Shown: piece by piece, positions 5,237 through 56,584 of the stretch
Layout of the letters: each line of letters opens with the position of its first letter
How positions within the stretch are numbered: the first letter of the stretch is position 1
NCBI GenBank assembly: GCA_037133055.1
Contig: JBAXOY010000001.1
Location: 32,236 to 96,235, forward strand
From: Chlamydiota bacterium
GTDB lineage: Bacteria; Auribacterota; Tritonobacteria; UBA1439
Direction: 5' to 3'
Length of the DNA: 64,000 nucleotides
The notes under the pieces: generated by a model
What the model was told of the DNA's origin: nothing
Seen by the model: only the letters and a program-made list of their open reading frames with translations
Databases searched by the model: none
Translations under genes and position numbers: made by a program

Positions 5237-5551
5237 ATCACGCCCCCGCTCCCCCCGCGATGCAAAGTATGCGATGTATGAAAAGTATGATACGCCGGAT
5301 GCGCCCCTCCCGCAATGCGTTTTTACCCCGGATGCCCGCATCACCTCCCTTCCACCTTTGACTCTTTCCATCCCGTGAAAGTTCCCCCGGCTCTGCCCAT
5401 TGATAAACTTTTCTTCCGGGATTGTTCTTTCTCCGTGCATTCCCGTGTTCTCCGTGTCCTCCGTGATAAACCATATATCCCCGGGGCTCTGGACAATATA
5501 TCCCCGGGGCTCTTGCCGCTCCGGGCGGGAGTCGCTATACTACGGCCCGTC

Positions 5552-6922: not shown

Positions 6923-6978
6923 CAGGGCTTGCTCCCGCCACACCCTTCACACCCTTCTCACCTTTCTCCCCCTTCTCA

Positions 6979-7926
6979 CTATTCTTTTTCCTCCCTGAAG
7001 TACGGCCGCCCCAGCGCCTCCGGCGCCCCCACCGCGCGCCGCGACGCCTTCCCCTGCGCGAGCGCGAGGAAGGCGATCGTGCCGAGGTAGGGGATCATCT
7101 GGAGGAACTGCACCGGGATGACCGTGCCGCGCGCCTGGAGCCGGGTGTCGAGCGAGTAGAGCGCCCCGAAGAGGAGCGCGCCGAGCGTCGCCTTGCCGGG
7201 GTGCCAGTTGCCGAATATCACGAGCGCGAGCGCCACCCATCCCCTCCCCGCGGTCATCTGCTCCCTCCACCCCGGGGAAAGCGAGAGGGAGAGGTAGGCG
7301 CCACCGAGCCCGGCCAGTATCCCCCCGAGCGCCACGCAGAGGTAGCGGACGGCGGCGACGCTGACCCCCATCACGTCCGCCGTCGAGGGGCTCTCCCCGA
7401 CCGCCCGGATGCAGAGCCCGAGCCTCGTCCTGAAGAGCATGAACCAGACCGCAAAGGCGAGGGCGTAGGTCAGATAGGCGAGGATGTTCTGGCGGAAGAG
7501 CGCCTCGCCGAAAAACGGGATCTGCGCGAGAAGGGGGATAGGGAGCGCGGCGAAGCTCAGCGGCGCGGGCTGCATGATCAGATTGAGGCGCTCGCCGATG
7601 AACGAGGAGATGCCGAGGCCGAGGATGGAGAGGGCGAGCCCGCTCACGATCTGGTTCGCCCTGAAGGTCACCGAGAGGAGCGCGTGTGCAAGGCTGAAGA
7701 CCCCCCCCACCAGCATCGCCGCCGCCACGCCCGCGAGGAGGCTCGAACCGGCGGTGCATGCCGCGAAGCCGCAGACCGCCCCCATAAGCATCATCCCCTC
7801 GGCGCCGAGGTTCAGGACCCCCGCCCGCTCGCAGATGATCTCGCCGAGCGCGACGAGGAGGAGCGGCGCCCCCTGGTCCACCGCCGCCGCCAGGACCACC
7901 TGGATGAATCCCGGCCAGTTATCCAT
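6979..7926 (-). CDS. ABC transporter permease (BMP/nucleoside-type system), subunit 2
   Basis: Polytopic membrane protein with the ABC-permease conserved loop. Start at MDNWPGF. 8-nt overlap with upstream permease. Confidence 0.75.
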   Translation of the reverse strand: MDNWPGFIQVVLAAAVDQGAPLLLVALGEIICERAGVLNLGAEGMMLMGAVCGFAACTAGSSLLAGVAAAMLVGGVFSLAHALLSVTFRANQIVSGLALSILGLGISSFIGERLNLIMQPAPLSFAALPIPLLAQIPFFGEALFRQNILAYLTYALAFAVWFMLFRTRLGLCIRAVGESPSTADVMGVSVAAVRYLCVALGGILAGLGGAYLSLSLSPGWREQMTAGRGWVALALVIFGNWHPGKATLGALLFGALYSLDTRLQARGTVIPVQFLQMIPYLGTIAFLALAQGKASRRAVGAPEALGRPYFREEKE

Positions 7927-9010
7927 GGATGTGCCCCTCCGCGGCGCGGGCCGTCCCCGCGCGCCGCGCAACGATCCGGTAATTCAGGAACAGGTCCCCT
8001 GCGAGGAGGAAGAACAGGATCGAGCCGGTGAGGATGTTGATCACCGATGCCGGGACGCCCAGTTCGATCTGGATCATCTCGCCCCCCGTGAGGAGCCCCC
8101 CGAAAAGAAACGCGACGATCGCGACGCCGAGGGGCCTCGCCTTCGCGAGCCATGCCACGACGATCGCGGTGTAGCCGTACTGGGCGAACACCTCGCGCGG
8201 GATCCTGCACTCGACCCCCGCGACCTGGCAGAACCCTGAGATCCCGGAGAGCCCCCCCGCGAGGGTCATCACCAGGAATATGTTCTTTCGTATCGCCATC
8301 CCCGCGTACCGGGCGCATTCCGGGCTGTCGCCGATCACCTTTACCTCGAACCCCCAGACGGTCTTCGCCAGAAGCAGCTGCAGGACCACCGCGGCGCCCG
8401 CGGCCAGGAATGCGCCGGCGTGGACCCTCCCCCACCCCACCCGCATGAGACAGGCAGGCGGGGGGAAGGGGCTCGTGAACGGGAAGCCGTCCGCGCCGCG
8501 GAGCGGCCCGTAAACAAAGAACTGGATCAGGTAGATCGCCACCCAGTTCATGAGGAGCGTCGTGATGATCTCACTCACGTTGAGGCGCGCGCGGAGCGCG
8601 CCGGGAATGCCCCCCCAGAGGGCTCCGGCGGCGAACGAGGCGAGGAGCATGAGGGCGAAGTAGGAGACGCGGCCGAGGCCCGGGATCACGAGGGCGACAA
8701 GGGATGCAGCGAGCGCCCCGACCACATACTGCCCCTCGGCCCCGATGTTCCAGAGGCGCATGCGGAGCGCGAGGGAGACGCTCAGTCCGCAGAAGAGGAG
8801 CGGGATCGCCTTGACCACCGTTTCCGAGAGCCCGTAGCTCGTCCCGAACGCCCCCCTGCAGAGGGCCGCGTAGGCGCCGCACGGGTTCACGCCGACGGCC
8901 GCGATCACTGCGCCGCCGAGGAACAGCGCGAGCGAGAGAGAGCCCAGCGTGACCGCGGCACGCAGCGCCCGCGAGGCGTGGAGCCGCTTCTCGATCGCGA
9001 GCGCGATCAT
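7919..9010 (-). CDS. ABC transporter permease (BMP/nucleoside-type system), subunit 1
   Basis: Start at MIALAIEK overlapping the ATPase stop (ATGA). Hydrophobic, about 10 predicted TM segments. The R/G-rich 132-aa extension was rejected. Confidence 0.75.
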   Translation of the reverse strand: MIALAIEKRLHASRALRAAVTLGSLSLALFLGGAVIAAVGVNPCGAYAALCRGAFGTSYGLSETVVKAIPLLFCGLSVSLALRMRLWNIGAEGQYVVGALAASLVALVIPGLGRVSYFALMLLASFAAGALWGGIPGALRARLNVSEIITTLLMNWVAIYLIQFFVYGPLRGADGFPFTSPFPPPACLMRVGWGRVHAGAFLAAGAAVVLQLLLAKTVWGFEVKVIGDSPECARYAGMAIRKNIFLVMTLAGGLSGISGFCQVAGVECRIPREVFAQYGYTAIVVAWLAKARPLGVAIVAFLFGGLLTGGEMIQIELGVPASVINILTGSILFFLLAGDLFLNYRIVARRAGTARAAEGHIHG

Positions 9011-10611
9011 GATGCCTGCCCCCCCCGATCCCACGGGACCGGCTGCCCCGTCATAAGGAGGCCGAGCATCTCGAGCGTCGCCTCGCCGCGCATCATGACC
9101 CTGCTCAATTTCCCGCGGTGCATCACCGCGAGCCTGTCGCTCAGGGCGCACACCTCGTCGAGATCCTCCGAGACGAGCAGCACCGCCGCCCCGTATTTCC
9201 GCATCGCGAGAAGGGCGCGGCGGATGCCCTCGGCGGCGCCGACGTCGAGACCCCTTGTCGGGTGGACCGCGAGGAGCGCGCGGGGGCTTGACGAAAGCTC
9301 GCGGGCAAGGATGATCTTCTGGAGGTTTCCCCCCGAGAGGAGTCTCACGGGGGCGCGAAGATCGGGAACAGCGATCCCGTAGCGCCTGATCAGCTCGCCC
9401 GCCCACTCCCCGGCCTCCCGCTCATCGAGGAGGATTCCCGAGGCGATCGGCGGTGAGTGGTAGCTCTTGAGGATCAGGTTGTCGACGGCGTCGAGCCCGG
9501 ACGCCGTGCCCACCCTGCTCCGGTCGCCGGGTATGCAGGCAAGGCCGCGGGCGATGATCTCCGAGGGCGACGCCCCCGCCATGTTTTTTCCGAGCAGCGC
9601 GTACCTCCCTCCCGAGGGCTTCCGCAGGCCCGTGAGCACCTCTTCGAGCTCCTTCTGCCCGTTTCCGGAGACGCCCGCGATTCCGAAGATCTCTCCCCCG
9701 CGGAGATCGAGGTCGACGCCGCGGAGCGCGGGGGCGCCGCGCGGGCCGGGCGCCATGAGACCCGTGAGCTCTATGACCGGCAGCCCCTCCGCCCTCACGG
9801 GCGCGGCGGCGGAAGCGGGCGCGCCCGCATGCCCGCGGAATGAAATGGGCAGCCCCCGAGATGCGCGCGCGGGCGTGAGCTCTCTCCCCACCATCAGGCG
9901 GGCGAGTTCGCGCTCGTGTGTCGCGGCGCGGTCAAGGACCGCGACGACCGTCCCTTTCCGGAGGACGGTGATGCGGTCCGATATCTCCATCACCTCGTCG
10001 AGCTTGTGCGAGATGAAGATGACCGCCCGGCCCTTCTGTGCAAACCCGCGCATCGTCTCGAAGAGCGCGCGGGTCTCGCCGGGCGCGAGCACCGCCGTCG
10101 GCTCGTCCAGTATGAGCACGCGCACCTGTCGGAGGAGCATCTTCACGATCTCGACGCGCTGCTGCTCGCCCACCGAGAGCTGCCAGACGGGGGCGCGCAG
10201 GTCCACCGCCAGGCCGTAGCGCCGCGCCACCCTCTCGACACGGTTTTCGATATCCCGCGCGCGGTAAAGGAACGGGAGCCCGGGCATCCCGAGCGCCGCG
10301 TTTTCGGCGACGGTGTGGCGGGGGATGAGCGTGCTGTGCTGATGCACCATCCCGACGCCGAGGGCGATGGCGTCGCGCGGGGAGCCGATCGCCGCGGGGC
10401 GTCCGTCGAGCCGGATCTCCCCCGCGTCGGGACGGTAGAGGCCGGCGAGGATGTTCATCAGGGTGGATTTGCCCGCCCCGTTCTCCCCGAGGAGGGCGTG
10501 GATCTCTCCGCGGCGGACATCGAAATCGACGCCGTCGTTGGCGACGACGACGGGGAAGCTCTTGCGGATGCCGCACATCCGCACCGCCGGCTCGTGTATC
10601 GTTTCGCTCAT
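9007..10611 (-). CDS. ABC transporter ATP-binding protein with duplicated NBDs (sugar/nucleoside type)
   Basis: Two Walker A/signature sets (GENGAGKST ... LSVGEQQRVEI; second NBD LSGGNLQK). ATG at 10611 (MSETIHE) preferred. Alternative GTG at 10656 has an AAGGAG that abuts the start codon. Confidence 0.8.
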   Translation of the reverse strand: MSETIHEPAVRMCGIRKSFPVVVANDGVDFDVRRGEIHALLGENGAGKSTLMNILAGLYRPDAGEIRLDGRPAAIGSPRDAIALGVGMVHQHSTLIPRHTVAENAALGMPGLPFLYRARDIENRVERVARRYGLAVDLRAPVWQLSVGEQQRVEIVKMLLRQVRVLILDEPTAVLAPGETRALFETMRGFAQKGRAVIFISHKLDEVMEISDRITVLRKGTVVAVLDRAATHERELARLMVGRELTPARASRGLPISFRGHAGAPASAAAPVRAEGLPVIELTGLMAPGPRGAPALRGVDLDLRGGEIFGIAGVSGNGQKELEEVLTGLRKPSGGRYALLGKNMAGASPSEIIARGLACIPGDRSRVGTASGLDAVDNLILKSYHSPPIASGILLDEREAGEWAGELIRRYGIAVPDLRAPVRLLSGGNLQKIILARELSSSPRALLAVHPTRGLDVGAAEGIRRALLAMRKYGAAVLLVSEDLDEVCALSDRLAVMHRGKLSRVMMRGEATLEMLGLLMTGQPVPWDRGGQAS

Positions 10612-10685
10612 GGAATTGGCGAGAGCGTCACCCGGCTCATTCCGTTGCGGTTGCACTCCTTGAGAGTATCATCCTTTTGAGATCT

Positions 10686-10699
10686 GGGATTTGGGATTT
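10686..10699. repeat. (GGGATTT)2 heptanucleotide tandem repeat (locus a)
   Basis: TGGGATTTGGGATTT lies between the SBP stop and the ATPase start of the minus-strand ABC operon. Overlaps the SBP stop codon. Confidence 0.8.
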
Positions 10700-11780
10700 A
10701 TTTCGGTATCCGCCCCTCGACCCCCTCCACGAAATAGCTCATGGTGTAGAGTTCGCGGTCCGTGGGGGCCTTCCCGTCGGGGATCGCCGTCTTCCCCTCC
10801 TGATCCCTGACCGGTCCCCGGAAGACCACGAGCTTCTTCTCCGCGATCTCCTTCTTCTTCTCCGTGACGAGCTTCTTCACCTCCTCCGGAACCATCGGGC
10901 CGAGAGGGGCGATGTCCACGATCCCCGTCTCGATCCCCCACCAGATCGGCTCGTTGCTCCACTTCCCCTCATGGAGATCGGTCGCGATCTTCGTGTAGAG
11001 AGGGACCCAGTTCCAGACGGCGGAGGTCAGGTGGGCCGTCGGGGCGAACCGGCTCATGTCGGTGTTGTACCCGATGCTCCAGACCCCGTGCTCCTGGGCG
11101 GCCTGCTGGGGGCCCGATGAGTCCTGGTGCTGGGCGATCACGTCGGCCCCGACCTCGATAAGGCTCTCCGCTGCCTCCTTCTCCTTTGCCGGGTCGAACC
11201 AGGTATAGGTCCAGACCACCCTGACCTTCGCCCTCGGGTTGACCGATCGGACCCCGAGGGTGAACGCGTTGATGCCGCGGATCACCTCGGGGATCGGGTG
11301 CGCGGCGACATAGCCGATGTCGTTCTTCTTCGTCATCTTCCCCGCGACGATCCCGGTGAGGTAGCGGGCCTGGTACATCCTCCCGAAATAGTTTGACATG
11401 TTGGCGGAGCGCTTCGATCCGGAACAGTGCATGAAGACGGTCTTCGGGTAGTTCTTCGCCGCCTCCTCGCACGGGTCCATGTAGCCGTAGCTCGTCGCGA
11501 AGATCAAATTGAATCCCATCTCCGCGAACTGGGTCATCACGCGCGTCGCGTCCGCCCCCTCCTTCACGTTCTCGACGAACCGGGTCTTCTTCACGAACGG
11601 GAGCTTCTCGATCGACTTCCTCCCCTCGTCGTGGGCCCAGTTCCACCCGGCGTCCCCGACCGGGGCGACGTAGACGAACCCGGCCCGTATCTCCTTCACC
11701 GGCTCGAACGCCCCCAGGGGCGTCCCGGCGCTCCACTGCCATGCGAAGAACGCGACCATGCCGGCGGCCGTCCTTTTCAT
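10698..11780 (-). CDS. BMP-family ABC transporter substrate-binding protein (Med/TmpC-like, purine nucleoside type)
   Basis: Signal peptide [19 protein letters not shown]. Family-typical motifs ([14 protein letters not shown]..., DVIAQHQDS). GGGAGG SD 5 nt upstream of the ATG at 11780. Confidence 0.8.
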
Positions 11781-11941
11781 CTGTTCCTCCCGAATATTTC
11801 GACTCCACGTGCCATCGACGGGAGAGTATAGCATCCGTTCCCTCGCCGCCTCCACCGCGATCTGCCGCAATTCGGGATCTGGCGCGATTTGCTGTGCGGG
11901 TCCACGATCCTAGCTCCGTCTCCACGGGGGCCTTCCGCTTC

Positions 11942-11980
11942 GGGGATTTTTTGGATTTGGGATTTGGGGTTTGGGATTTC
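11942..11980. repeat. Degenerate (GGGATTT)~5 tandem repeat (locus b) in divergent promoter region
   Basis: GGGGATTTTTTGGATTTGGGATTTGGGGTTTGGGATTT. Sits between the SBP start (11780, minus) and the BMC-H start (12080, plus). Confidence 0.8.
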
Positions 11981-12079
11981 CCATCCAGCACTCTCCCCTT
12001 GACCCCCTCCGCGGCGCTGTACTATGATGTGCCCCTGTTTCACATGCGCGCGGCGCACACATCAGCGGAGGATCACACA

Positions 12080-12370
12080 ATGGCCGAAGCACTGGGAATG
12101 ATCGAGACGCGCGGGTTTGCCGCCATGGTGGAGGCGTCGGACGCCATGGTGAAGGCGGCCAAGGTCGAGCTCGTGAGCTACGAGAAGATCGGCGGAGGGT
12201 ACGTCACGGCGATCGTCCGCGGCGATGTCGCGGCGGTGCGCGCGGCGGTGGAGGCCGGGGCGCGGGGCGCGGAGAAGGTGGGAGAGCTCGTCTCCGTCCA
12301 CGTGATACCGAGGCCGCACGTCAACGTGGACACGGTTTTGCCGCTCGGCCGTCCGCATCCGAAGGACTGA
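12080..12370 (+). CDS. Bacterial microcompartment shell hexamer protein (BMC-H; PduA/EutM/CcmK family)
   Basis: [60 protein letters not shown]...[10 protein letters not shown] is near-consensus for PF00936. GGAGGA SD 8 nt upstream. Confidence 0.88.
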
Positions 12371-12410
12371 TCCCGGCCATCCCCTTCTTTTTTCCGTGAA
12401 TCCTTGCCTT

Positions 12411-12440
12411 TTGGGATTTGGGATCTGGGATTTGGGATTT
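12411..12440. repeat. (GGGATTT)4 tandem repeat (locus c), intercistronic
   Basis: GGGATTTGGGATCTGGGATTTGGGATTT between BMC-H stop and BMC-P1 start. Four G3 tracts spaced by 4 nt. Confidence 0.85.
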
Positions 12441-12455
12441 ACCCCGGAGGGGTTC

Positions 12456-12767
12456 ATGCAGCTCGGCAGAGTGGTGGGTTCGGTCGTCTCGACCCGGAAG
12501 AGCGAGAACATCCAGGGGCTGAAGCTCCTCCTGGTCCAGCAGCTCTCCCACGGCGGGAGCGCTCTCAAGAACTACGTCATGGCGGTCGACGTGGTGCAGG
12601 CGGGGACCGGCGACGTGGTGCTCTACTCCGAGGGGAGCTCATGCCGGCAGACCGCCCAGACCGACAAGCGGCCCGTGGACGGGGTCGTCATGGCGATCGT
12701 CGACACGTGGGAAGTCGGAGGCAAAGAGGTCTATTCAAAGTCGCGCGAGGACGGCGCATCGAAATGA
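12456..12767 (+). CDS. BMC vertex pentamer protein (BMC-P; EutN/CcmL/PduN family), paralog 1
   Basis: MQLGRVVGSVVSTRKSENIQGLKLLLVQQ... matches PF03319 N-terminus. GGAGGGG SD 5 nt upstream. Confidence 0.8.
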   Translation: MQLGRVVGSVVSTRKSENIQGLKLLLVQQLSHGGSALKNYVMAVDVVQAGTGDVVLYSEGSSCRQTAQTDKRPVDGVVMAIVDTWEVGGKEVYSKSREDGASK

Positions 12768-13036
12768 AAATCGGGAAAGTAATCGGCACGGTGGTGGCGA
12801 CCCGGAAGGTGGAGTCGCTGAACGGCGTCAAGCTCCTCCTCGTCCAGCCGCTCGACGAAGACGGAAAGCCCGCGGGCGAGCCCGTCGTCGCCTGCGACAG
12901 CCAGCAGTCCGGCCCCGGGGAGACCGTCTTCTTCATCGGCGGCCGCGAGGCGTCGCTGCCCCTGCCGGAGCCTTTCAATCCCGCCGACGCGGCCATCACC
13001 GGGATCATCGACGCCGTGACAAAGGACGCCCCATGA
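12764..13036 (+). CDS. BMC vertex pentamer protein (BMC-P), paralog 2
   Basis: MKIGKVIGTVVATRKVESLNGVKLLLVQPL... ATGA start/stop overlap with paralog 1. Confidence 0.8.
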   Translation: MKIGKVIGTVVATRKVESLNGVKLLLVQPLDEDGKPAGEPVVACDSQQSGPGETVFFIGGREASLPLPEPFNPADAAITGIIDAVTKDAP

Positions 13037-13362
13037 AGATCGGCACCGTCATCGGCACGGTGGTGGCGACCCTGAAGCCCGAGGGGTTCAACGGCCGCAA
13101 GCTCCTCCTCGTCCGCCCCGAGGACCCGTACGGGAAGAAGACCGAGACCCCGGTGATTGCCGTGGACACGGTCTCTGCGGGGGAGGGCGACCGGGTGATC
13201 TTCGTGGACGAGGGGAACTCCGCGCGGCAGGTGCTGGACTGGAAGGACGGCTGCGTGCGCGCCGTCATCGTGGGCTACATCGACGAGATCGACATCCCAC
13301 GAAATCCCAAATCCCCGGATTCAAATCCCAAATCCCAAATCCCGAATCCCAAGAAGAAGTAG
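13033..13362 (+). CDS. BMC vertex pentamer protein (BMC-P), paralog 3, with repeat-encoded C-terminal tail
   Basis: MKIGTVIGTVVATLKPEGFNGRKLLLVRPED... ATGA overlap with paralog 2. Last ~21 aa (PRNPKSPDSNPKSQIPNPKKK) are encoded by the (AAATCCC)n repeat. Confidence 0.75.
   Translation: MKIGTVIGTVVATLKPEGFNGRKLLLVRPEDPYGKKTETPVIAVDTVSAGEGDRVIFVDEGNSARQVLDWKDGCVRAVIVGYIDEIDIPRNPKSPDSNPKSQIPNPKKK
13302..13352. repeat. (AAATCCC)~7 tandem repeat (locus d; reverse orientation of GGGATTT)
   Basis: AAATCCCAAATCCCCGGATTCAAATCCCAAATCCCAAATCCCGAATCCCAA. Inside the 3' end of BMC-P3. Confidence 0.85.
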
Positions 13363-13495
13363 GTTCCCGCTATGCCTCTTCTGTGACGCCAAGGGTGCCT
13401 TGCGTCGTCGGGATTTCGCTTCCGCTGATTGAGAAGACCCTCCAGGAGAGGGGACTGCCGGGGACCCGGATAGGAAGAGAAGGGTGTGTCTCTTT

Positions 13496-13522
13496 GATTT
13501 GGGATTTGGGATTTGGGATTTT
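13496..13522. repeat. (GGGATTT)~3.5 tandem repeat (locus e), inverted relative to locus d
   Basis: GATTTGGGATTTGGGATTTGGGATTTT. Overlaps the proS stop codon (minus strand). Confidence 0.85.
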
Positions 13523-15236
13523 ATTCCAGTGCCCGCCGCACCATCCCCGCGATCTCATCTGCGGCGCCCCCCATGTCGACGAGCCGCGCATCCTTCTCGC
13601 CCCGGACCTTCAGCTCAACCTTCCCCTGCGCGAGACCCTTCGGCCCGACGACGACCCTGAGCGGGATGCCGACGAGGTCGGCGTCCTTGAACTTCACCCC
13701 CGGCCGCTCGTCCCTGTCGTCGAGGAGCACCTCCACCCCCCGCACCTCGAGGGCGGCGCAGAGCTCCCCGGCGGCGCGTATCGTCGGCTCGTCCGTCACC
13801 TTCATCGCGATGATCTCGACGTGGTACGGCGCGATGGCCATCGGCCATATGATCCCGTCGGCGTCGTGGTGCTGCTCGATCGCGGCGGCGACGGTCCGTG
13901 TGACGCCGATGCCGTAGCAGCCCATGACGAACGGCTTCGCCGCCCCGTCCTCGTCCGAGAACGTCGCCCCCATCGACTCGCTGTACTTCCTGCCCAGCTT
14001 GAAGATCTGCCCGACCTCGATCCCGCGGTACGCCGTGAGCGGCGCGCCGCACCTCGGGCACCCGTCGCCCTCCCGGCTCACGGCGAGGTCGTGGTACTCC
14101 GCGGCGGTAAAATCGCGACCCTCGCTCACCCCCGCGAGGTGATGGTCGGTCCGGTTCGCCCCCGTGACGCCGTCCCGCATCCCCTTCACCGTGCGGTCGG
14201 CGATGACGAGGACCCCTTTGAGGCCGAGGGGCCCCGCGAAGCCGACCTCGGCCCCCGTGACTTTCCGGATCGCCGCCTCGTCGGCCAGCTCCAGCCCGGC
14301 GCGGCCGAGGGCCTTGCCGAGCTTCGGCTCGCTCACATCCCTGTCGCCGCGGATGAGCACCGCGACCGTCTCCTCCCCCGCGCGGTAGAGCAGCGTTTTG
14401 ATGAGCCGGTCCGGCGTCACGCCGAGGAACGCCGTCACCTCCTCGACCGTCTTCCTCCCCGGGGTGTGGACCTCGCGGAGCTCCGCCTCTTCGCGCTCCT
14501 CCGCAGGCGGCACCGCGCCGGTCGCCGTGTCGGTCGTCGCGGCGTAGCCGCAGGCCTCCGACGGGCACGAGATCACCACGGACTCTCCCGTCTCGGCGAG
14601 CACCATGAACTCGTGCGTGTCCTTCCCCCCCATGAGGCCGGGGTCGGCGAGCACCGCCCTGAAGGTGAGCCCGCACCGCCTGAAGATGCGGGAGTACACT
14701 TCGTGCATGCGCAGGTAGTACTCCTCGAGCGACGCTGCGTCCCGGTGGAATGAATAGGCGTCCTTCATCGTGAACTCTCTCCCGCGCATCACGCCGAAGC
14801 GCGGCCGCACCTCGTCCCGGAACTTGGTCTGTATCTGGTACAGGCAGAGCGGCAGCTCGCGGTAAGAGCGCACCTCGCCCCGCACCGTCGCGGTGATGAC
14901 CTCCTCGTGCGTGGGCCCGAGCGCGAACTCCCTGTCGTGCCGGTCCTTGAGGCGCATGAGCTCCTTGCCGTACTCGTCCCAGCGCCCGCTCTCGCGCCAG
15001 AGCTCCGCGGGGCTCAGGATGGGGAGGAGCAGCTCCTGCGCGCCCGCGCGGTCCATCTCCTCGCGCACGATGCGCTCGACCTTCCTGATGCTCCGCCACC
15101 CGAGCGGGAGGTAGGTGTAGACCCCCGCGCCGAGCTTCCGCATCATCCCCGCGCGAAGCATCAGCCTGTGGCTGGCGATCTCGGCGTCCGCGGGGCTCTC
15201 TTTCAATGTCGGTATGAATGCGTGTGTCCATTTCAT
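13521..15236 (-). CDS. proS: Proline--tRNA ligase
   Basis: Full-length class II aaRS with bacterial-type editing domain. Strong family similarity (MKWTHAFIPTLKE..., FTMKDAYSFH, GCYGIGVTR). Confidence 0.92.
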   Translation of the reverse strand: MKWTHAFIPTLKESPADAEIASHRLMLRAGMMRKLGAGVYTYLPLGWRSIRKVERIVREEMDRAGAQELLLPILSPAELWRESGRWDEYGKELMRLKDRHDREFALGPTHEEVITATVRGEVRSYRELPLCLYQIQTKFRDEVRPRFGVMRGREFTMKDAYSFHRDAASLEEYYLRMHEVYSRIFRRCGLTFRAVLADPGLMGGKDTHEFMVLAETGESVVISCPSEACGYAATTDTATGAVPPAEEREEAELREVHTPGRKTVEEVTAFLGVTPDRLIKTLLYRAGEETVAVLIRGDRDVSEPKLGKALGRAGLELADEAAIRKVTGAEVGFAGPLGLKGVLVIADRTVKGMRDGVTGANRTDHHLAGVSEGRDFTAAEYHDLAVSREGDGCPRCGAPLTAYRGIEVGQIFKLGRKYSESMGATFSDEDGAAKPFVMGCYGIGVTRTVAAAIEQHHDADGIIWPMAIAPYHVEIIAMKVTDEPTIRAAGELCAALEVRGVEVLLDDRDERPGVKFKDADLVGIPLRVVVGPKGLAQGKVELKVRGEKDARLVDMGGAADEIAGMVRRALE

Positions 15237-35694: not shown

Positions 35695-35973
35695 GAGCCT
35701 GTCCGAGTAATGGGCTCTGTCGCGCCGCCTGCCGGTTGCGAGCGGATCAAGGCGCGAGGCCGAAGGCGTACTCAGCGCCGTACGCTGAGGCCGGAGCAAC
35801 GCCGAGCCGCGACGCAACCGGCGGCGGCCCGAAGGGTTTCGGCGGCGGGCAGCCGTCTGCGGCGTTACGGCTTCCTCGACGATGGGCAGGACATCGCCTT
35901 CGTCGCCGCGCCTTGCATCCGGCCCCCCGGCGCTCGAAATGCGTCGAGATCCATTACTCGGACAGACTCCTAG
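35692..35973. mobile_element. MITE-like palindromic element, copy 1 (282 bp)
   Basis: Terminal inverted repeats TAGGAGCCTGTCCGAGTAATGG... and ...CCATTACTCGGACAGACTCCTAG. GC-rich interior with hairpin GTACTCAGCGCCGTACGCTGAGG. Confidence 0.6.
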
Positions 35974-37591
35974 CCCCGAGGCGCCCCTCGCGCGCGAGCC
36001 GCGCGAGATCCCCCGGCGCGATGTCATAGACAAGGTAGGCATGCGCCACGTGCCCCACCGGCTCGAAATTCTCCCTCAGCCACCGGTAGCGCTCGGGGAG
36101 AAACACCCCCGTGAGCAGGTTCACCCCGACGACCACCCTCCCCTCCGAGGGCTTCTCGGGATTCACGATCACGCCGGGGTGATCCTTGACGTACCGCCTC
36201 AGGTACCAGCCGCCCTGCCCCCAGTCGATGTTCGAATCCGCCAGTATTCTGTAGCAGCGGGTGCGATCGGGGACGAGTTCGTTGAAATACGGGAGGAAGT
36301 GGGGATACCACGAGAGGACCGATGCCCCAAGCCAGACGAGCGCGCAGGCGAGCGCAGTCCGGCGCAAAGCGCCGAACTCGTCCCACCCCTTGAGGAGGCT
36401 GCCGCAGAAGATGATGAGCGGCGGGAAGGCGAAAAGAAAATAGCGTATCCCTACCTGGGTCTTGAAGAAGAATCCGAACCAGACGAGGGCGGCGGCGGGC
36501 GGGACAAGGAGGAATGCCTCGGCGCCGGGGAAGTCGAACCGCTCCCGGCGGCACAGGTACGCGGCAAGCGCCGCCCACAGGCACGCCTGGACGGCGAGCG
36601 GGACCTTGTACAGGAACGCGAAAAGGTAGTAGCCGGTGAACCCGACGCCCCGCGGGTGCAGCCTGCCGAAGAGATACGGGTTCCCCGAGACCCCGCCCAT
36701 TTCCTCGTAGTGCTTCGACCAATCAAGGCCCTCGAGGTAGGGATACGGCAGCGGGAGCGGCAGCCGGTTGAGGATCCCGGCCCTCGATTGGATCGCATGG
36801 GAGAGGGCGCTCTTGAACTCATACGCCCCGAACGGCGTGCCGCTCCCCTCGAAGAGGAACCCGGCGTTGACGACGGCCGCGCTCACCGCCGCAAAAAAGA
36901 ACGCCCATCCGGTAAAAACAGCCGCGCGGGAGGCGAGCCCGCGGAAATCCCTCTTCGCGATAAGGGCGAAGAGTGCCCGCGCGTGCCGCACGGCGAGGAT
37001 GACTAGAAACACCGGGTAGAGGAGTATCGCGGCGTGCTTGGTGAGCTGGGCGAGCCCGAGCGTGAGCGCGCTCGCCGCCCCGCTCACCCGCCCCGGCCTC
37101 TTCTCGAACCGCCAGAAATAATACAGCGCGACCGTCATCGCGCAGGCCGCATACAGGTCGGTGGTGACGAGCTGTCCGTGCGCGATGAAGTTCGGCTCGA
37201 ACGCGTACAGGGCGAGGGAGAAGAGGCCGGCGGCCGGCCCGTACAGCTCCCGCGCCCACCGGTAGACGAAGACCCCGAGGAGCAGGGCGGCGAGCACCGT
37301 GACGTATCTCCCCGTCTTCCGATCGCGAAGGAACCGCCGCGCCGCGCCTCCGCCGATCAGCGGGGCGAGCATATCCCCGGTCGCGCGGGGGACGGCATTG
37401 AGGGCCGAAACGGGCATTGTCGAGTCCGTGAACCGTTTCGCGGTGTGGTCCTTGAGTATCTGGAGTCCATACCGGTAATGGTACGGCTCGTCGTAGGTGA
37501 GAGTGAGATGCCGGGCACTCAGGACCGAGAGGATCAGCAGCGCGCCCAGGATGGCCGCCGCGGCGGCACGGGAGGATCGGAGGGGCATCAT
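35954..37591 (-). CDS. Glycosyltransferase family 39 (ArnT/PMT-like) membrane protein
   Basis: Polytopic N-terminal domain with GT-C features. Last residues ...GARSLSE and stop TAA are encoded by the right TIR of the MITE-like element. Confidence 0.7.
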   Translation of the reverse strand: MMPLRSSRAAAAAILGALLILSVLSARHLTLTYDEPYHYRYGLQILKDHTAKRFTDSTMPVSALNAVPRATGDMLAPLIGGGAARRFLRDRKTGRYVTVLAALLLGVFVYRWARELYGPAAGLFSLALYAFEPNFIAHGQLVTTDLYAACAMTVALYYFWRFEKRPGRVSGAASALTLGLAQLTKHAAILLYPVFLVILAVRHARALFALIAKRDFRGLASRAAVFTGWAFFFAAVSAAVVNAGFLFEGSGTPFGAYEFKSALSHAIQSRAGILNRLPLPLPYPYLEGLDWSKHYEEMGGVSGNPYLFGRLHPRGVGFTGYYLFAFLYKVPLAVQACLWAALAAYLCRRERFDFPGAEAFLLVPPAAALVWFGFFFKTQVGIRYFLFAFPPLIIFCGSLLKGWDEFGALRRTALACALVWLGASVLSWYPHFLPYFNELVPDRTRCYRILADSNIDWGQGGWYLRRYVKDHPGVIVNPEKPSEGRVVVGVNLLTGVFLPERYRWLRENFEPVGHVAHAYLVYDIAPGDLARLAREGRLGARSLSE

Positions 37592-45192: not shown

Positions 45193-45208
45193 TCTCCAAA
45201 GGGTGCAA

Positions 45209-45261
45209 GGAGCCTGTCCGAGCAATGGATCTCGACGCCCACTACTCGGACAGGCTCCTAG
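45209..45261. mobile_element. MITE-like palindromic element, copy 2 (53 bp hairpin derivative)
   Basis: GGAGCCTGTCCGAGCAATGGATCTCGACGCCCACTACTCGGACAGGCTCCTAG. 14-bp perfect stem. Confidence 0.6.
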
Positions 45262-55767: not shown

Positions 55768-55847
55768 GGGGACGGGTCTTCCCGGGAGGGGAGCTGAAAA
55801 ACCCCGCGCGGATCACTATCGGATGCACGGCAGGGAGGGTGTACACC

Positions 55848-56405
55848 ATGGCGAACGCAGTCGATCTCAGAAGGGGGGTGGCGATCCTGTACCAGGGAGC
55901 GCCGCATGTCATCACCGAGTACCAGCACGTCACGCCGGGAAACTGGCGCGCCTACGTGCAGGTTTCGATGCGCAATGTGAAGACGGGAAACTCGACGCAG
56001 GCGCGGTTCAGGACATCGGAGACCGTGGAGCTTGTCGATCTCGAGAGCCGCAAACTCCAGTACCAGTACCGCGACGGGGACGGCTACAACTTCATGAATC
56101 TCGAGGATTTCAGCACCGTCGTCCTTTCCCCCGCCGTCGTCGGCGAGGCCGCGCGGTATTTCAAGGAGGGCGACGAGATCAAGGGCCTCTTCCACGGCGA
56201 GGAGCCGATAGAGCTCGAACTCCCCACGAGCGTGGTGCTGAAGGTGGTGACGACCACGCCCGGCTTCAAGGGGGACTCGGTCAACAATCTTCAAAAGCCG
56301 GCGACGCTCGAGACGGGGTACGAGCTGAACGTGCCGCTCTTCATCAAGGAGGGGGAGATGGTCAAGGTGGACACGCGGACCGGGGGGTATCTGGGGAGGG
56401 AGTGA
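55848..56405 (+). CDS. efp: Elongation factor P
   Basis: Full-length three-domain EF-P similarity. GGGAGGG SD 7 nt upstream. Loop tip reads TPGNW rather than KPGKG. Confidence 0.85.
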   Translation: MANAVDLRRGVAILYQGAPHVITEYQHVTPGNWRAYVQVSMRNVKTGNSTQARFRTSETVELVDLESRKLQYQYRDGDGYNFMNLEDFSTVVLSPAVVGEAARYFKEGDEIKGLFHGEEPIELELPTSVVLKVVTTTPGFKGDSVNNLQKPATLETGYELNVPLFIKEGEMVKVDTRTGGYLGRE

Positions 56406-56407
56406 TT

Positions 56408-56433
56408 CAAATCCCAAAACCCAAATCCCAAAA
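56408..56433. repeat. (AAATCCC)~3 tandem repeat (locus f)
   Basis: CAAATCCCAAAACCCAAATCCCAAAAG. Begins 3 nt after the efp stop. Confidence 0.8.
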
Positions 56434-56505: not shown

Positions 56506-56584
56506 GGAGCCTGTCCAAGGTCCAAGTAATGGATCTCGACGCCAAGCCTCCGGGCCGCCGCCGGTTACTCGGACAGGCTCCTAG
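56506..56584. mobile_element. MITE-like palindromic element, copy 3 (79 bp)
   Basis: GGAGCCTGTCCAAGGTCCAAGTAATGGATCTCGACGCC…GGTTACTCGGACAGGCTCCTAG. Ends 2 nt before the dodecin stop codon. Confidence 0.6.

Follow-up and report, generated by a model that had tools for sequence, protein, structure and literature searches.

Tandem repeats with a unit of seven nucleotides have been described as the commonest class of long simple sequence repeats (SSRs) in bacteria, and polymerase slippage has been proposed as their origin (Mrazek, 2007, as cited in MacGregor, 2015; PMC4679880). The stretch of contig JBAXOY010000001.1 analysed here, 64 kb in length and referred to as the window, comes from an uncultured candidate-phylum bacterium and carries six tandem arrays of the heptamer GGGATTT, named a to f, five of which lie around a small group of bacterial microcompartment (BMC) shell genes; the locus is a compact test case for the function of such repeats. 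The closest described system is the class of G-rich heptameric SSRs found in Xanthomonas, where the unit is GGGAATC with a heterogeneity summarised as GGGANTN, and in Nostoc PCC 7120, where the unit is GGGGA(C/T)T (Rehm et al., 2015; PMC4692102). About 90% of these SSRs are intergenic, at a mean distance of 28 nt from the upstream open reading frame (ORF) and sometimes overlapping its stop codon; they hold 2–26 units, with a mode of 4, many of them form inverted pairs, and the same junctions are occupied in related species by arrays of differing length and sequence (Rehm et al., 2015). They number about 180 per genome, are spread over the whole chromosome and are not tied to one functional class of genes; oligonucleotides with their sequence form G-quadruplexes (G4s) and i-motifs in vitro, and the function of the class is unexplained (Rehm et al., 2015). 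For Xanthomonas a strict rule has also been given, namely a GGGANTN unit with positions 1–4 and 6 conserved and at least one exact GGGAATC (Rehm et al., 2015).

The GGGATTT arrays represent a new unit, in a new phylum, within this known and functionally unexplained class. The assignment is made because the unit fits GGGANTN (GGGA-T-T-T) and because the gene-end placement, the inverted pairs and the four-unit mode (the last subject to a bias of the census described below) agree with the published class, although the arrays hold no exact GGGAATC or GGGGAYT unit. An initial annotation of this DNA, made from the sequence alone, had stated that the repeats resemble no known bacterial SSR family, and this part of it has to be given up. 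The particular unit GGGATTT is not mentioned in Rehm et al. (2015), and no report of it was found in a literature search.

The existence of the family is clear from pattern searches. The 14-mer GGGATTTGGGATTT was found 17 times in the window when up to two mismatches were allowed; in 100 dinucleotide-preserving shuffles the expectation was 0.31 and no shuffle exceeded 2. The single heptamer occurs 30 times against 7.6 expected. Tandem Repeats Finder (TRF) reported a period of 7 at all six loci, with 2 to 7.3 copies arranged head to tail and at least 14 bp in each array (Table 1). Besides these six, no heptamer array containing A/T was reported by TRF in the 64-kb window, and another 9.2 kb read from the source contig contained no additional array, which brings the coverage of that contig to 73 kb. 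Five of the six arrays fall inside 2.9 kb, a clustering with P = 8.5e-5 by position and P = 0.006 at the level of junctions, when d and e are counted as one. Every array lies on a gene boundary and none enters conserved coding sequence: five are non-coding, and the remaining one, d, occupies a C-terminal tail that is not conserved. In these respects (one heptamer family at six loci, concentrated in 2.9 kb, in intercistronic, promoter-proximal and gene-end positions) the initial annotation has been borne out by the searches and by the gene map.

The placement of the individual arrays is precise. Array a overlaps the TAA stop codon of a gene for a Bmp-family substrate-binding protein, upstream of the ABC (ATP-binding cassette) ATPase gene; array e also overlaps a stop codon, that of proS, and array f begins 3 nt after the stop codon of efp and is followed on its 3' side by a conventional GC-rich hairpin terminator with a T-run. 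Array b is followed, about 20 nt downstream, by a sigma-70-like −35 box, part of the predicted promoter of the BMC operon, whose hexamers can be read directly from the sequence of a relative as well (L131; relatives are denoted here by L numbers). Array c, which shares the variant unit AGATCYC with array a, presents its G-rich strand in the mRNA of the operon; 7 nt separate its end from the GGAGG of the first BMC-P gene (ATG at 12457). The third BMC-P gene, as annotated, includes array d at its 3' end, and the array encodes the tail IPRNPKSPDSNPKSQIPNPKKK of the protein, whose homology with its orthologues stops at ...GYIDEID.

Compared with the Xanthomonas and Nostoc SSRs, the arrays of the window share the unit length of 7 nt, the G3 tract with A/T after it, the tandem arrangement, the gene ends and the inverted pairs, the latter being d/e and c/d in the window. 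They differ in the unit itself and in the host. The published pairs lie close together, whereas c, d and e are a set with complementarity over a long range, in which arrays about 0.9 kb apart surround a gene cassette, and this conserved set around the pentamer (BMC-P) genes is the sole addition to what has been described for the class. The published SSRs also spread over the whole chromosome, whereas the data on this genome comprise six arrays in 73 kb, with five of them in 2.9 kb.

Other known repeats have some of these features. The short tandemly repeated repetitive (STRR) heptamers known in Calothrix and Nostoc (as cited in Rehm et al., 2015) and the TAACTGA heptamers of Beggiatoaceae, cyanobacteria and Bacteroidetes (MacGregor, 2015; PMC4679880) are, like GGGATTT, tandem and mostly intergenic; in both cases one unit is common to unrelated phyla with no known transfer mechanism, and some copies overlap stop codons or occupy dispensable protein ends. 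The unit sequences differ, and TAACTGA includes stop codons when read forward and is mainly found shortly before gene starts, whereas GGGATTT is free of stops in all six frames and is located mainly at gene ends in the window. The repetitive extragenic palindromic sequences and bacterial interspersed mosaic elements (REP/BIME) show a resemblance in function only, as dispersed extragenic hairpin formers located where cistrons end and between genes that converge. Each REP/BIME element is an imperfect palindrome of 20–40 nt linked to a transposase of the RAYT (REP-associated tyrosine) type, and REP hairpins stabilise upstream mRNA. The GGGATTT arrays are direct repeats, so that a single array is not palindromic and a hairpin arises only from two inverted arrays, and the window has its own, separate family of REP-like palindromes. 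A RAYT/Y1 transposase as the mobiliser of the arrays was rejected, since such a gene occurs in one relative (L206) with REP hairpins of its own, and tblastn with this protein found no homologue in the window. SSRs of contingency loci have in common with GGGATTT a unit that is not a multiple of three and a unit number that is polymorphic between near-identical genomes; they differ in that the GGGATTT arrays are neither in 5' coding regions nor between −35 and −10 boxes, and in that their neighbours are housekeeping and metabolic genes (proS, efp, an ABC transporter and BMC shell genes) and not surface antigens. A clustered regularly interspaced short palindromic repeat (CRISPR) array can be set aside, as the initial annotation had done, because the units are 7 nt long and contiguous, whereas CRISPR repeats measure 23–50 nt and are separated by unique spacers of similar length. 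Telomere-like units are of the TTTAGGG type; a telomere-like repeat was dropped as an explanation because the arrays are internal and their unit is a different one. Finally, a conserved insertion target or flanking motif was rejected, given that the flank profiles contain decaying units only.

Complementary arrays around the BMC-P genes

The mutual complementarity of arrays c, d and e did not figure in the initial annotation. The three BMC-P genes of the window lie between the arms of an inverted repeat made up of c and d (30–32 nt, 93% complementary, arms 882 nt apart), and d and e form a second one of 32 nt, 91% complementary, across the convergent junction of the third BMC-P gene and proS. 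The predicted c:d duplex has a free energy of −51.3 to −51.5 kcal/mol and the predicted d:e duplex one of −44.9 kcal/mol. The 256-nt region from d to e is predicted to fold at −100.2 and −100.8 kcal/mol on the two strands (z = −3.0 and −3.25), and the minimum free energy structure of the full predicted transcript divides d between the other two arrays, its 5' half being paired with c and its 3' half with e. Of the four mismatches between c and d, three can be seen by eye to be sense-strand G·U pairs, too few to carry weight.

Orthologous loci were recovered from syntenic relatives by means of their homologues of prolyl-tRNA synthetase (ProRS, encoded by proS) and BMC-P; the closest named ProRS to that of the window, at 78% identity, is from Candidatus Aureabacteria. 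Absence from syntenic relatives had been named in the initial annotation as evidence against its reading, and the relatives divide on this point. In L172 and L208 (ProRS 74.6%, G+C 0.57–0.58) and in L206 (ProRS 76%, G+C 0.55), which represent two further lineages of this candidate-phylum clade, orthologous GGGATTT arrays occupy the c, d and e junctions with their orientations kept, and the junction between array c and the ribosome binding site (RBS), GGGATTT-ACCCnGGAGGG, is common to these three and the window; an exact search of metagenome contigs for alleles of this junction gave no match. On the other hand, L131 (ProRS 84%, G+C 0.71) keeps the gene order of the window and has no GGGATTT array. 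At site a it has an orthologous array in which every unit has changed (TGA-ATCCC GAAACCC GAATCCC GTATCCC), at site b there is no array in a spacer that is shorter by about 120 nt, at site c only degenerate remnant units are present, and the stop codons of proS and of the third BMC-P gene are 9 nt apart, so that the d–e spacer is missing. The GC-rich L168–170 (ProRS 85%) likewise lack GGGATTT arrays and retain a faint 7-nt periodicity at c only. Another situation is found in L134 (ProRS 75%, G+C 0.56), where a four-unit array stands at the 3' end of proS (site e) and the BMC spacers contain several unrelated heptamer families and a hairpin element. The same junctions are, in short, occupied at a in L131, at c, d and e in L172/L208 and L206, and at e in L134.

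Unit number is polymorphic between closely related genomes, a comparison that the initial annotation had proposed. L172 and L208 are 99.9% identical over 8.3 kb, and the sole structural difference between them is one of unit number, 4 against 2, in the array that precedes proS. This difference is direct evidence for slippage, which, with gene conversion, would be a copying mechanism of the arrays. In addition, the c and d arms change together across lineages, because both consist of four perfect units in L206 and both carry an identical 26-nt insert in L172 and L208, which extends the arms there to 55 nt (96% complementary, 1180 nt apart). The predicted c:d duplex reaches −53.6 kcal/mol in L206 and −121.7 kcal/mol in L172. 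This co-variation is predicted alike by gene conversion or template switching and by selection for pairing, and the data are compatible with either.

Distribution across phyla and viruses

A scan for (GGGATTT)3 yielded at least 119 genomic stretches, a lower bound, from many phyla and including complete isolate genomes. Among the matches listed, to which all counts across phyla in this text refer, the carriers belong to Acidobacteriota, Planctomycetota, Verrucomicrobiota, Cyanobacteria, Bacteroidota, Chloroflexota, Patescibacteria, Xanthomonadales, Desulfonema and others. A period of 7 accounts for 413 of the 1071 arrays called by TRF in these stretches, with 60 arrays of period 6 and 83 of period 8. 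Array lengths were counted in a census of 177 arrays from 120 sequences (the window and the 119 listed genomic stretches, with one duplicate excerpt of the window); the modal array has four units (64 of 177), a mode that is biased because the seed pattern demanded three perfect units.

Outside the window, about 45% of the arrays are internal to long ORFs, and these show a preferred orientation: the C-rich strand is the sense strand, encoding KSQIPNP, in 55 cases, and the G-rich strand, encoding GIWDLGF, in 14 (p = 7e-7). This bias suggests a tolerance filter. A literature search on the two encoded peptides returned nothing relevant. In-frame (AAATCCC)n arrays occur within the conserved genes for SecA, ClpB, LigA, MetH, Mfd, MurG, MurD and GatA (L116, L115, L081, L024, L033, L018, L084 and L063), where they add peptides of the KSQIPNP type, and their presence in essential genes of many phyla matters for annotation. 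Inverted pairs are also widespread, in the form of long imperfect palindromes with variable loops. In 14 of the 18 pairs from other phyla the C-rich arm comes before the G-rich arm (p = 0.03), an order with which transcripts of either strand would fold into a hairpin ending in U.

The view that GGGATTT is a uniquely universal unit was rejected on the viral sequences: (GGGATTT)3 was found at 10 viral loci, compared with 25 for (GGGTATT)3, 3 for (GGTGTAT)3 and 3 for (GGGAATC)3. Four of the ten viral contigs with (GGGATTT)3 are giant-virus metagenome bins (L124, L125, L126 and L128).

The association of the repeat with BMC genes, as put forward in the initial annotation, holds for the clustering in the window and not for the unit itself, which is present in at least 119 stretches from many phyla. 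When the BMC-H and BMC-P proteins were compared by tblastn with 129 GGGATTT-bearing stretches (119 genomic and 10 viral), L065 was the single match, and a sequence-specific BMC association was rejected: GGGATTT has no sequence-specific link to BMC loci. L065, from Pedosphaera (Verrucomicrobiota), has two repeat elements near its BMC-P genes. One is a 59-nt imperfect palindrome, made of AAATCCC/AAATTCC and then GGGATTT/GGAATTT arrays, between two BMC-P genes; the other is a pair of 8-mer arrays (CAACACTC) between an aldehyde dehydrogenase gene and a BMC-P gene. Other heptamer arrays adjoin the gene at several more distant metagenome BMC-P loci (L173–L175 and L177), an observation that comes without an enrichment baseline.

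Origin and possible role of the arrays

The arrays are probably a lineage-specific G-rich heptanucleotide SSR family shaped by slippage, local copying and a tolerance filter, in which inverted pairs make hairpins. Replication slippage would lengthen and shorten the arrays, units would be copied between neighbouring arrays, putatively by gene conversion, as the variant unit common to a and c and the insert common to the c and d arms of L172 and L208 suggest, and arrays would survive only where steps of 7 nt are harmless, that is, in spacers, at stop-codon junctions and in dispensable protein tails. A lone array would need no function, and two opposed arrays would create long complementary arms. 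For example, d and e would give a stem of about 26 bp over the convergent junction, with RNA of the form 5'-(AAAUCCC)n ... (GGGAUUU)m-U-rich from both strands, and this stem may act as a REP-like 3'-end hairpin or as a bidirectional terminator, with c and d bracketing the BMC-P genes. Any effect on transcripts is conditional, as is a role of c, d and e in shell-protein stoichiometry, which they may have.

Several observations weigh against this explanation. The persistence of c, d and e at about 25% ProRS divergence exceeds the turnover of a simple neutral microsatellite, and some selection or a very efficient homogenising process would therefore be needed. Across phyla, arrays just past stop codons have the C-rich strand as sense in 24 cases and the G-rich strand in 24; a rule placing the C-rich strand on the mRNA after stop codons was consequently rejected, and the array orientation seen in the window is no general rule. 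As for termination, the d:e stem of about 26 bp has a loop of 143 nt, far above ordinary intrinsic terminators, and it is not the short GC-rich hairpin, with a loop of 3–8 nt and a U-run directly after it, that defines these, the + strand tail after e being UUUUAUU; a terminator scan reported nothing at d/e.

The alternative with the best claim is that the arrays are purely neutral repeat DNA, a possible though less probable account in which they would be slippage products, kept alike by gene conversion or template switching, and the complementarity of c, d and e a by-product. It agrees with the loss or decay of arrays in L131, L168, L136 and L207, where the operon is intact, with the array of a different unit (CCAGAAG-type on the mRNA strand) that takes the place of GGGATTT in the BMC-H/BMC-P spacer of L134, and with the variation in unit number between the near-identical L172 and L208. 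The viral counts given above, in which other heptamers reach numbers similar to those of GGGATTT, and the published class, for which no function is known, point in the same direction. This account fares worse with the three junctions that have kept one unit in one orientation in the window, L172/L208 and L206 despite the divergence of their ProRS; the perfect units of both c and d in L206, the 14:4 bias in the order of inverted pairs and the junction-level clustering (P = 0.006) are also difficult for it. If the arms prove inactive, the locus would be a clean example of slippage and arm-to-arm copying sustaining a microsatellite over the long term.

A reading at the opposite end, tentative and rather unlikely, is that c, d and e constitute a conserved RNA device at the level of the operon transcript. 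The pairing of c with d may enclose the pentamer cassette in the way that the RNase III-cut stems of rRNA operons enclose 16S and 23S rRNA, and the pairing of d with e may provide a 3'-end hairpin, with G-rich c beside the RBS, C-rich d at the end and G-rich e beyond it in this model. If true, the stability or translation of an abundant BMC-H message would be uncoupled from that of a rare BMC-P message, and heptamer arrays would be cheap, self-renewing complementary arms that punctuate bacterial operons. Action at the RNA level, if true, would also explain how pentamers are kept rare relative to hexamers, and would give the wider repeat class a function.

It is more doubtful that the arrays act as G4 elements, folding wherever at least four G-tracts are present, with an RNA G4 at c, 7 nt from the RBS, lowering translation of the first BMC-P gene. 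The initial annotation had assigned the canonical motif (G3+ N1–7)x4 to b, c and d; c and d do satisfy it, at the level of the motif, whereas b requires a 13-nt loop. The G-rich strand of c is that of the mRNA, as this proposal needs, whereas d is C-rich on its own mRNA, and a, e and f have only 2–3 G-tracts and are, with b, non-canonical. The four-unit mode recalls the Xanthomonas/Nostoc class, whose oligonucleotides form G4s in vitro, but the count is the one biased by the seed of three perfect units. Moreover, site c lacks four G3 tracts in L131, L168, L134 and L207, and the whole window contains 19 canonical G4 motifs, so that the motif is common at 66% G+C.

Still less probable is a multi-GGA leader, in which the tandem GGA of array c, next to a GGA-containing RBS, would be bound by a CsrA-like or other single-strand RNA-binding protein that throttles BMC-P. 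Six of seven lineages, some of them without a recognisable array, have 3–5 GGA within the 45 nt that precede the first BMC-P gene, against a mean of 1.45 for 121 other genes in these loci (Mann–Whitney p = 2.5e-4, a test that overstates independence because the lineages are related), and CsrA, S1 and Csp have been proposed as candidate binders of the TAACTGA heptamers. However, any decayed GGGATTT array inherently contains GGA, L131 has one GGA only, arrays a, d, e and f are left unexplained, and no csrA gene was seen, though none was searched for. Finally, a DNA inversion switch, in which recombination between the c and d arms would flip the BMC-P cassette relative to the BMC-H promoter, is hardly credible: the inverted repeats do flank exactly the three BMC-P genes (arms of 30 nt in the window, 55 nt in L172), but every relative examined shows the cassette in one and the same orientation, the annotation lists no invertase gene in the vicinity and the arms are short for RecA-dependent recombination.

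Gene neighbourhood and other repeats

Gene calls were taken from assembly GCA_964409435.1, contig CAYPDH010000002.1, in which the contig position equals 99176 + p for window position p, and are listed with the other features in Table 1. No Rfam match at the gathering threshold and no tRNA or tmRNA (ARAGORN) was found in the 64-kb window.

Table 1. Positions of the GGGATTT arrays and of other features, in window coordinates unless a relative is named
Feature	Position	Strand	TRF period-7 call	Remarks
Tandem-repeat set near the array cluster	5260-5289, 5429-5465, 5474-5520, 6941-6985			9-mer and other repeats at gene boundaries
ABC ATPase gene	9007-10656	-		gene call
Array a	10679-10699	+	10676-10699	~3 units; GAGATCT GGGATTT GGGATTT; gene strand AAATCCC AAATCCC AGATCTC
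Bmp-family binding protein gene	10698 to about 11780	-		gene call
Array b	11943-11979	+	11949-11979	~5 degenerate units, 2-nt register slip; divergent bmp/BMC-H spacer
Sigma-70-like promoter	11999-12028	+		TTGACC, 18 nt, TATGAT; predicted for BMC-H/BMC-P operon; just 3' of array b
BMC-H gene	12081-12370	+		gene call
Array c	12410-12440	+	12410-12440	4 units; TTT GGGATTT GGGATCT GGGATTT GGGATTT; between BMC-H and first EutN/BMC-P gene
Three tandem EutN/BMC-P genes	12457-12767, 12764-13036, 13033-13362	+		PF03319 on all three; bracketed by arrays c and d
Array d	13302-13352	-	13302-13352	7 units, AAATCCC on + strand, one interrupted unit (CGGATTC)
d-e spacer	13353-13493	.		loop of predicted d:e stem; internal hairpins
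Array e	13494-13522	+	13496-13521	3.5 units; TTGATTT and three perfect units; proS mRNA strand AAAUCCC from TAA stop
proS	13521-15236	-		gene call; convergent with third BMC-P gene
REP-like palindromes	35941-35977, 45202-45261, 56555-56584			one copy 120 nt downstream of array f
efp	55839-56405	+		gene call
Array f	56408-56433	-	56408-56433	3 units; + strand AAATCCC AAAACCC AAATCCC AAAA
Hairpin element, L134	921-1145, 8109-8310, 17897-17959, 19284-19345			
Hairpin element, L206	9637-9708, 9980-10051			
GC-rich inserts in heptamer arrays, L172	3047-3073, 4284-4310, 5468-5511			partly palindromic
GC-rich insert in heptamer array, L206	9210-9256			partly palindromic
Y1 transposase gene, L206	14808-15413			IS200/RAYT-like
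Repeat elements, L065	168-313, 600-670			near BMC-P genes

The genes that accompany the shell genes vary among the relatives. A Bmp/ABC nucleoside-type transporter operon stands between a Na/Ala symporter gene and BMC-H in the window and L131 only, as compared with L172, L134, L206, L207 and L208; in the other relatives the symporter adjoins the BMC genes directly, except in L206, where xanthine-dehydrogenase-like genes adjoin them instead. The shell mini-locus of the window has no adjoining enzyme genes, and the shell locus of L136 adjoins rpiB and deoC.

Further repeats have been found in the window. The gene boundaries near the array cluster carry 9-mer repeats, with about three copies of ATGCAAAGT and about four of TTCTCCGTG; two copies of ATATATCCCCGGGGCTCT lie upstream of the Na/Ala symporter gene, and about five copies of CACCCTTCT lie between the convergent symporter and permease genes. 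The separate REP-like palindromes of the window, which consist of AGGAGCCTGTCCGAG, about 23 nt and CTCGGACAGGCTCCT, occupy at least three intergenic places.

The relatives hold repeats of their own. A hairpin element, GCACCTGAT...ATCAGGTGC, is present in spacers between BMC-P genes and upstream of BMC-H. In L134 it forms the core of an element of about 215 bp, flanked by two different heptamer arrays, of which two inverted copies exist, each upstream of a gene. Small GC-rich inserts interrupt heptamer arrays of L172 and L206, and recall the nested small dispersed repeats held by cyanobacterial heptamer arrays. Finally, the Y1 transposase gene of L206 has the hairpin TTCCACCTCGTAGGTGGAA on both sides, an arrangement that resembles a REPtron, at a distance of 4 kb from the BMC locus.

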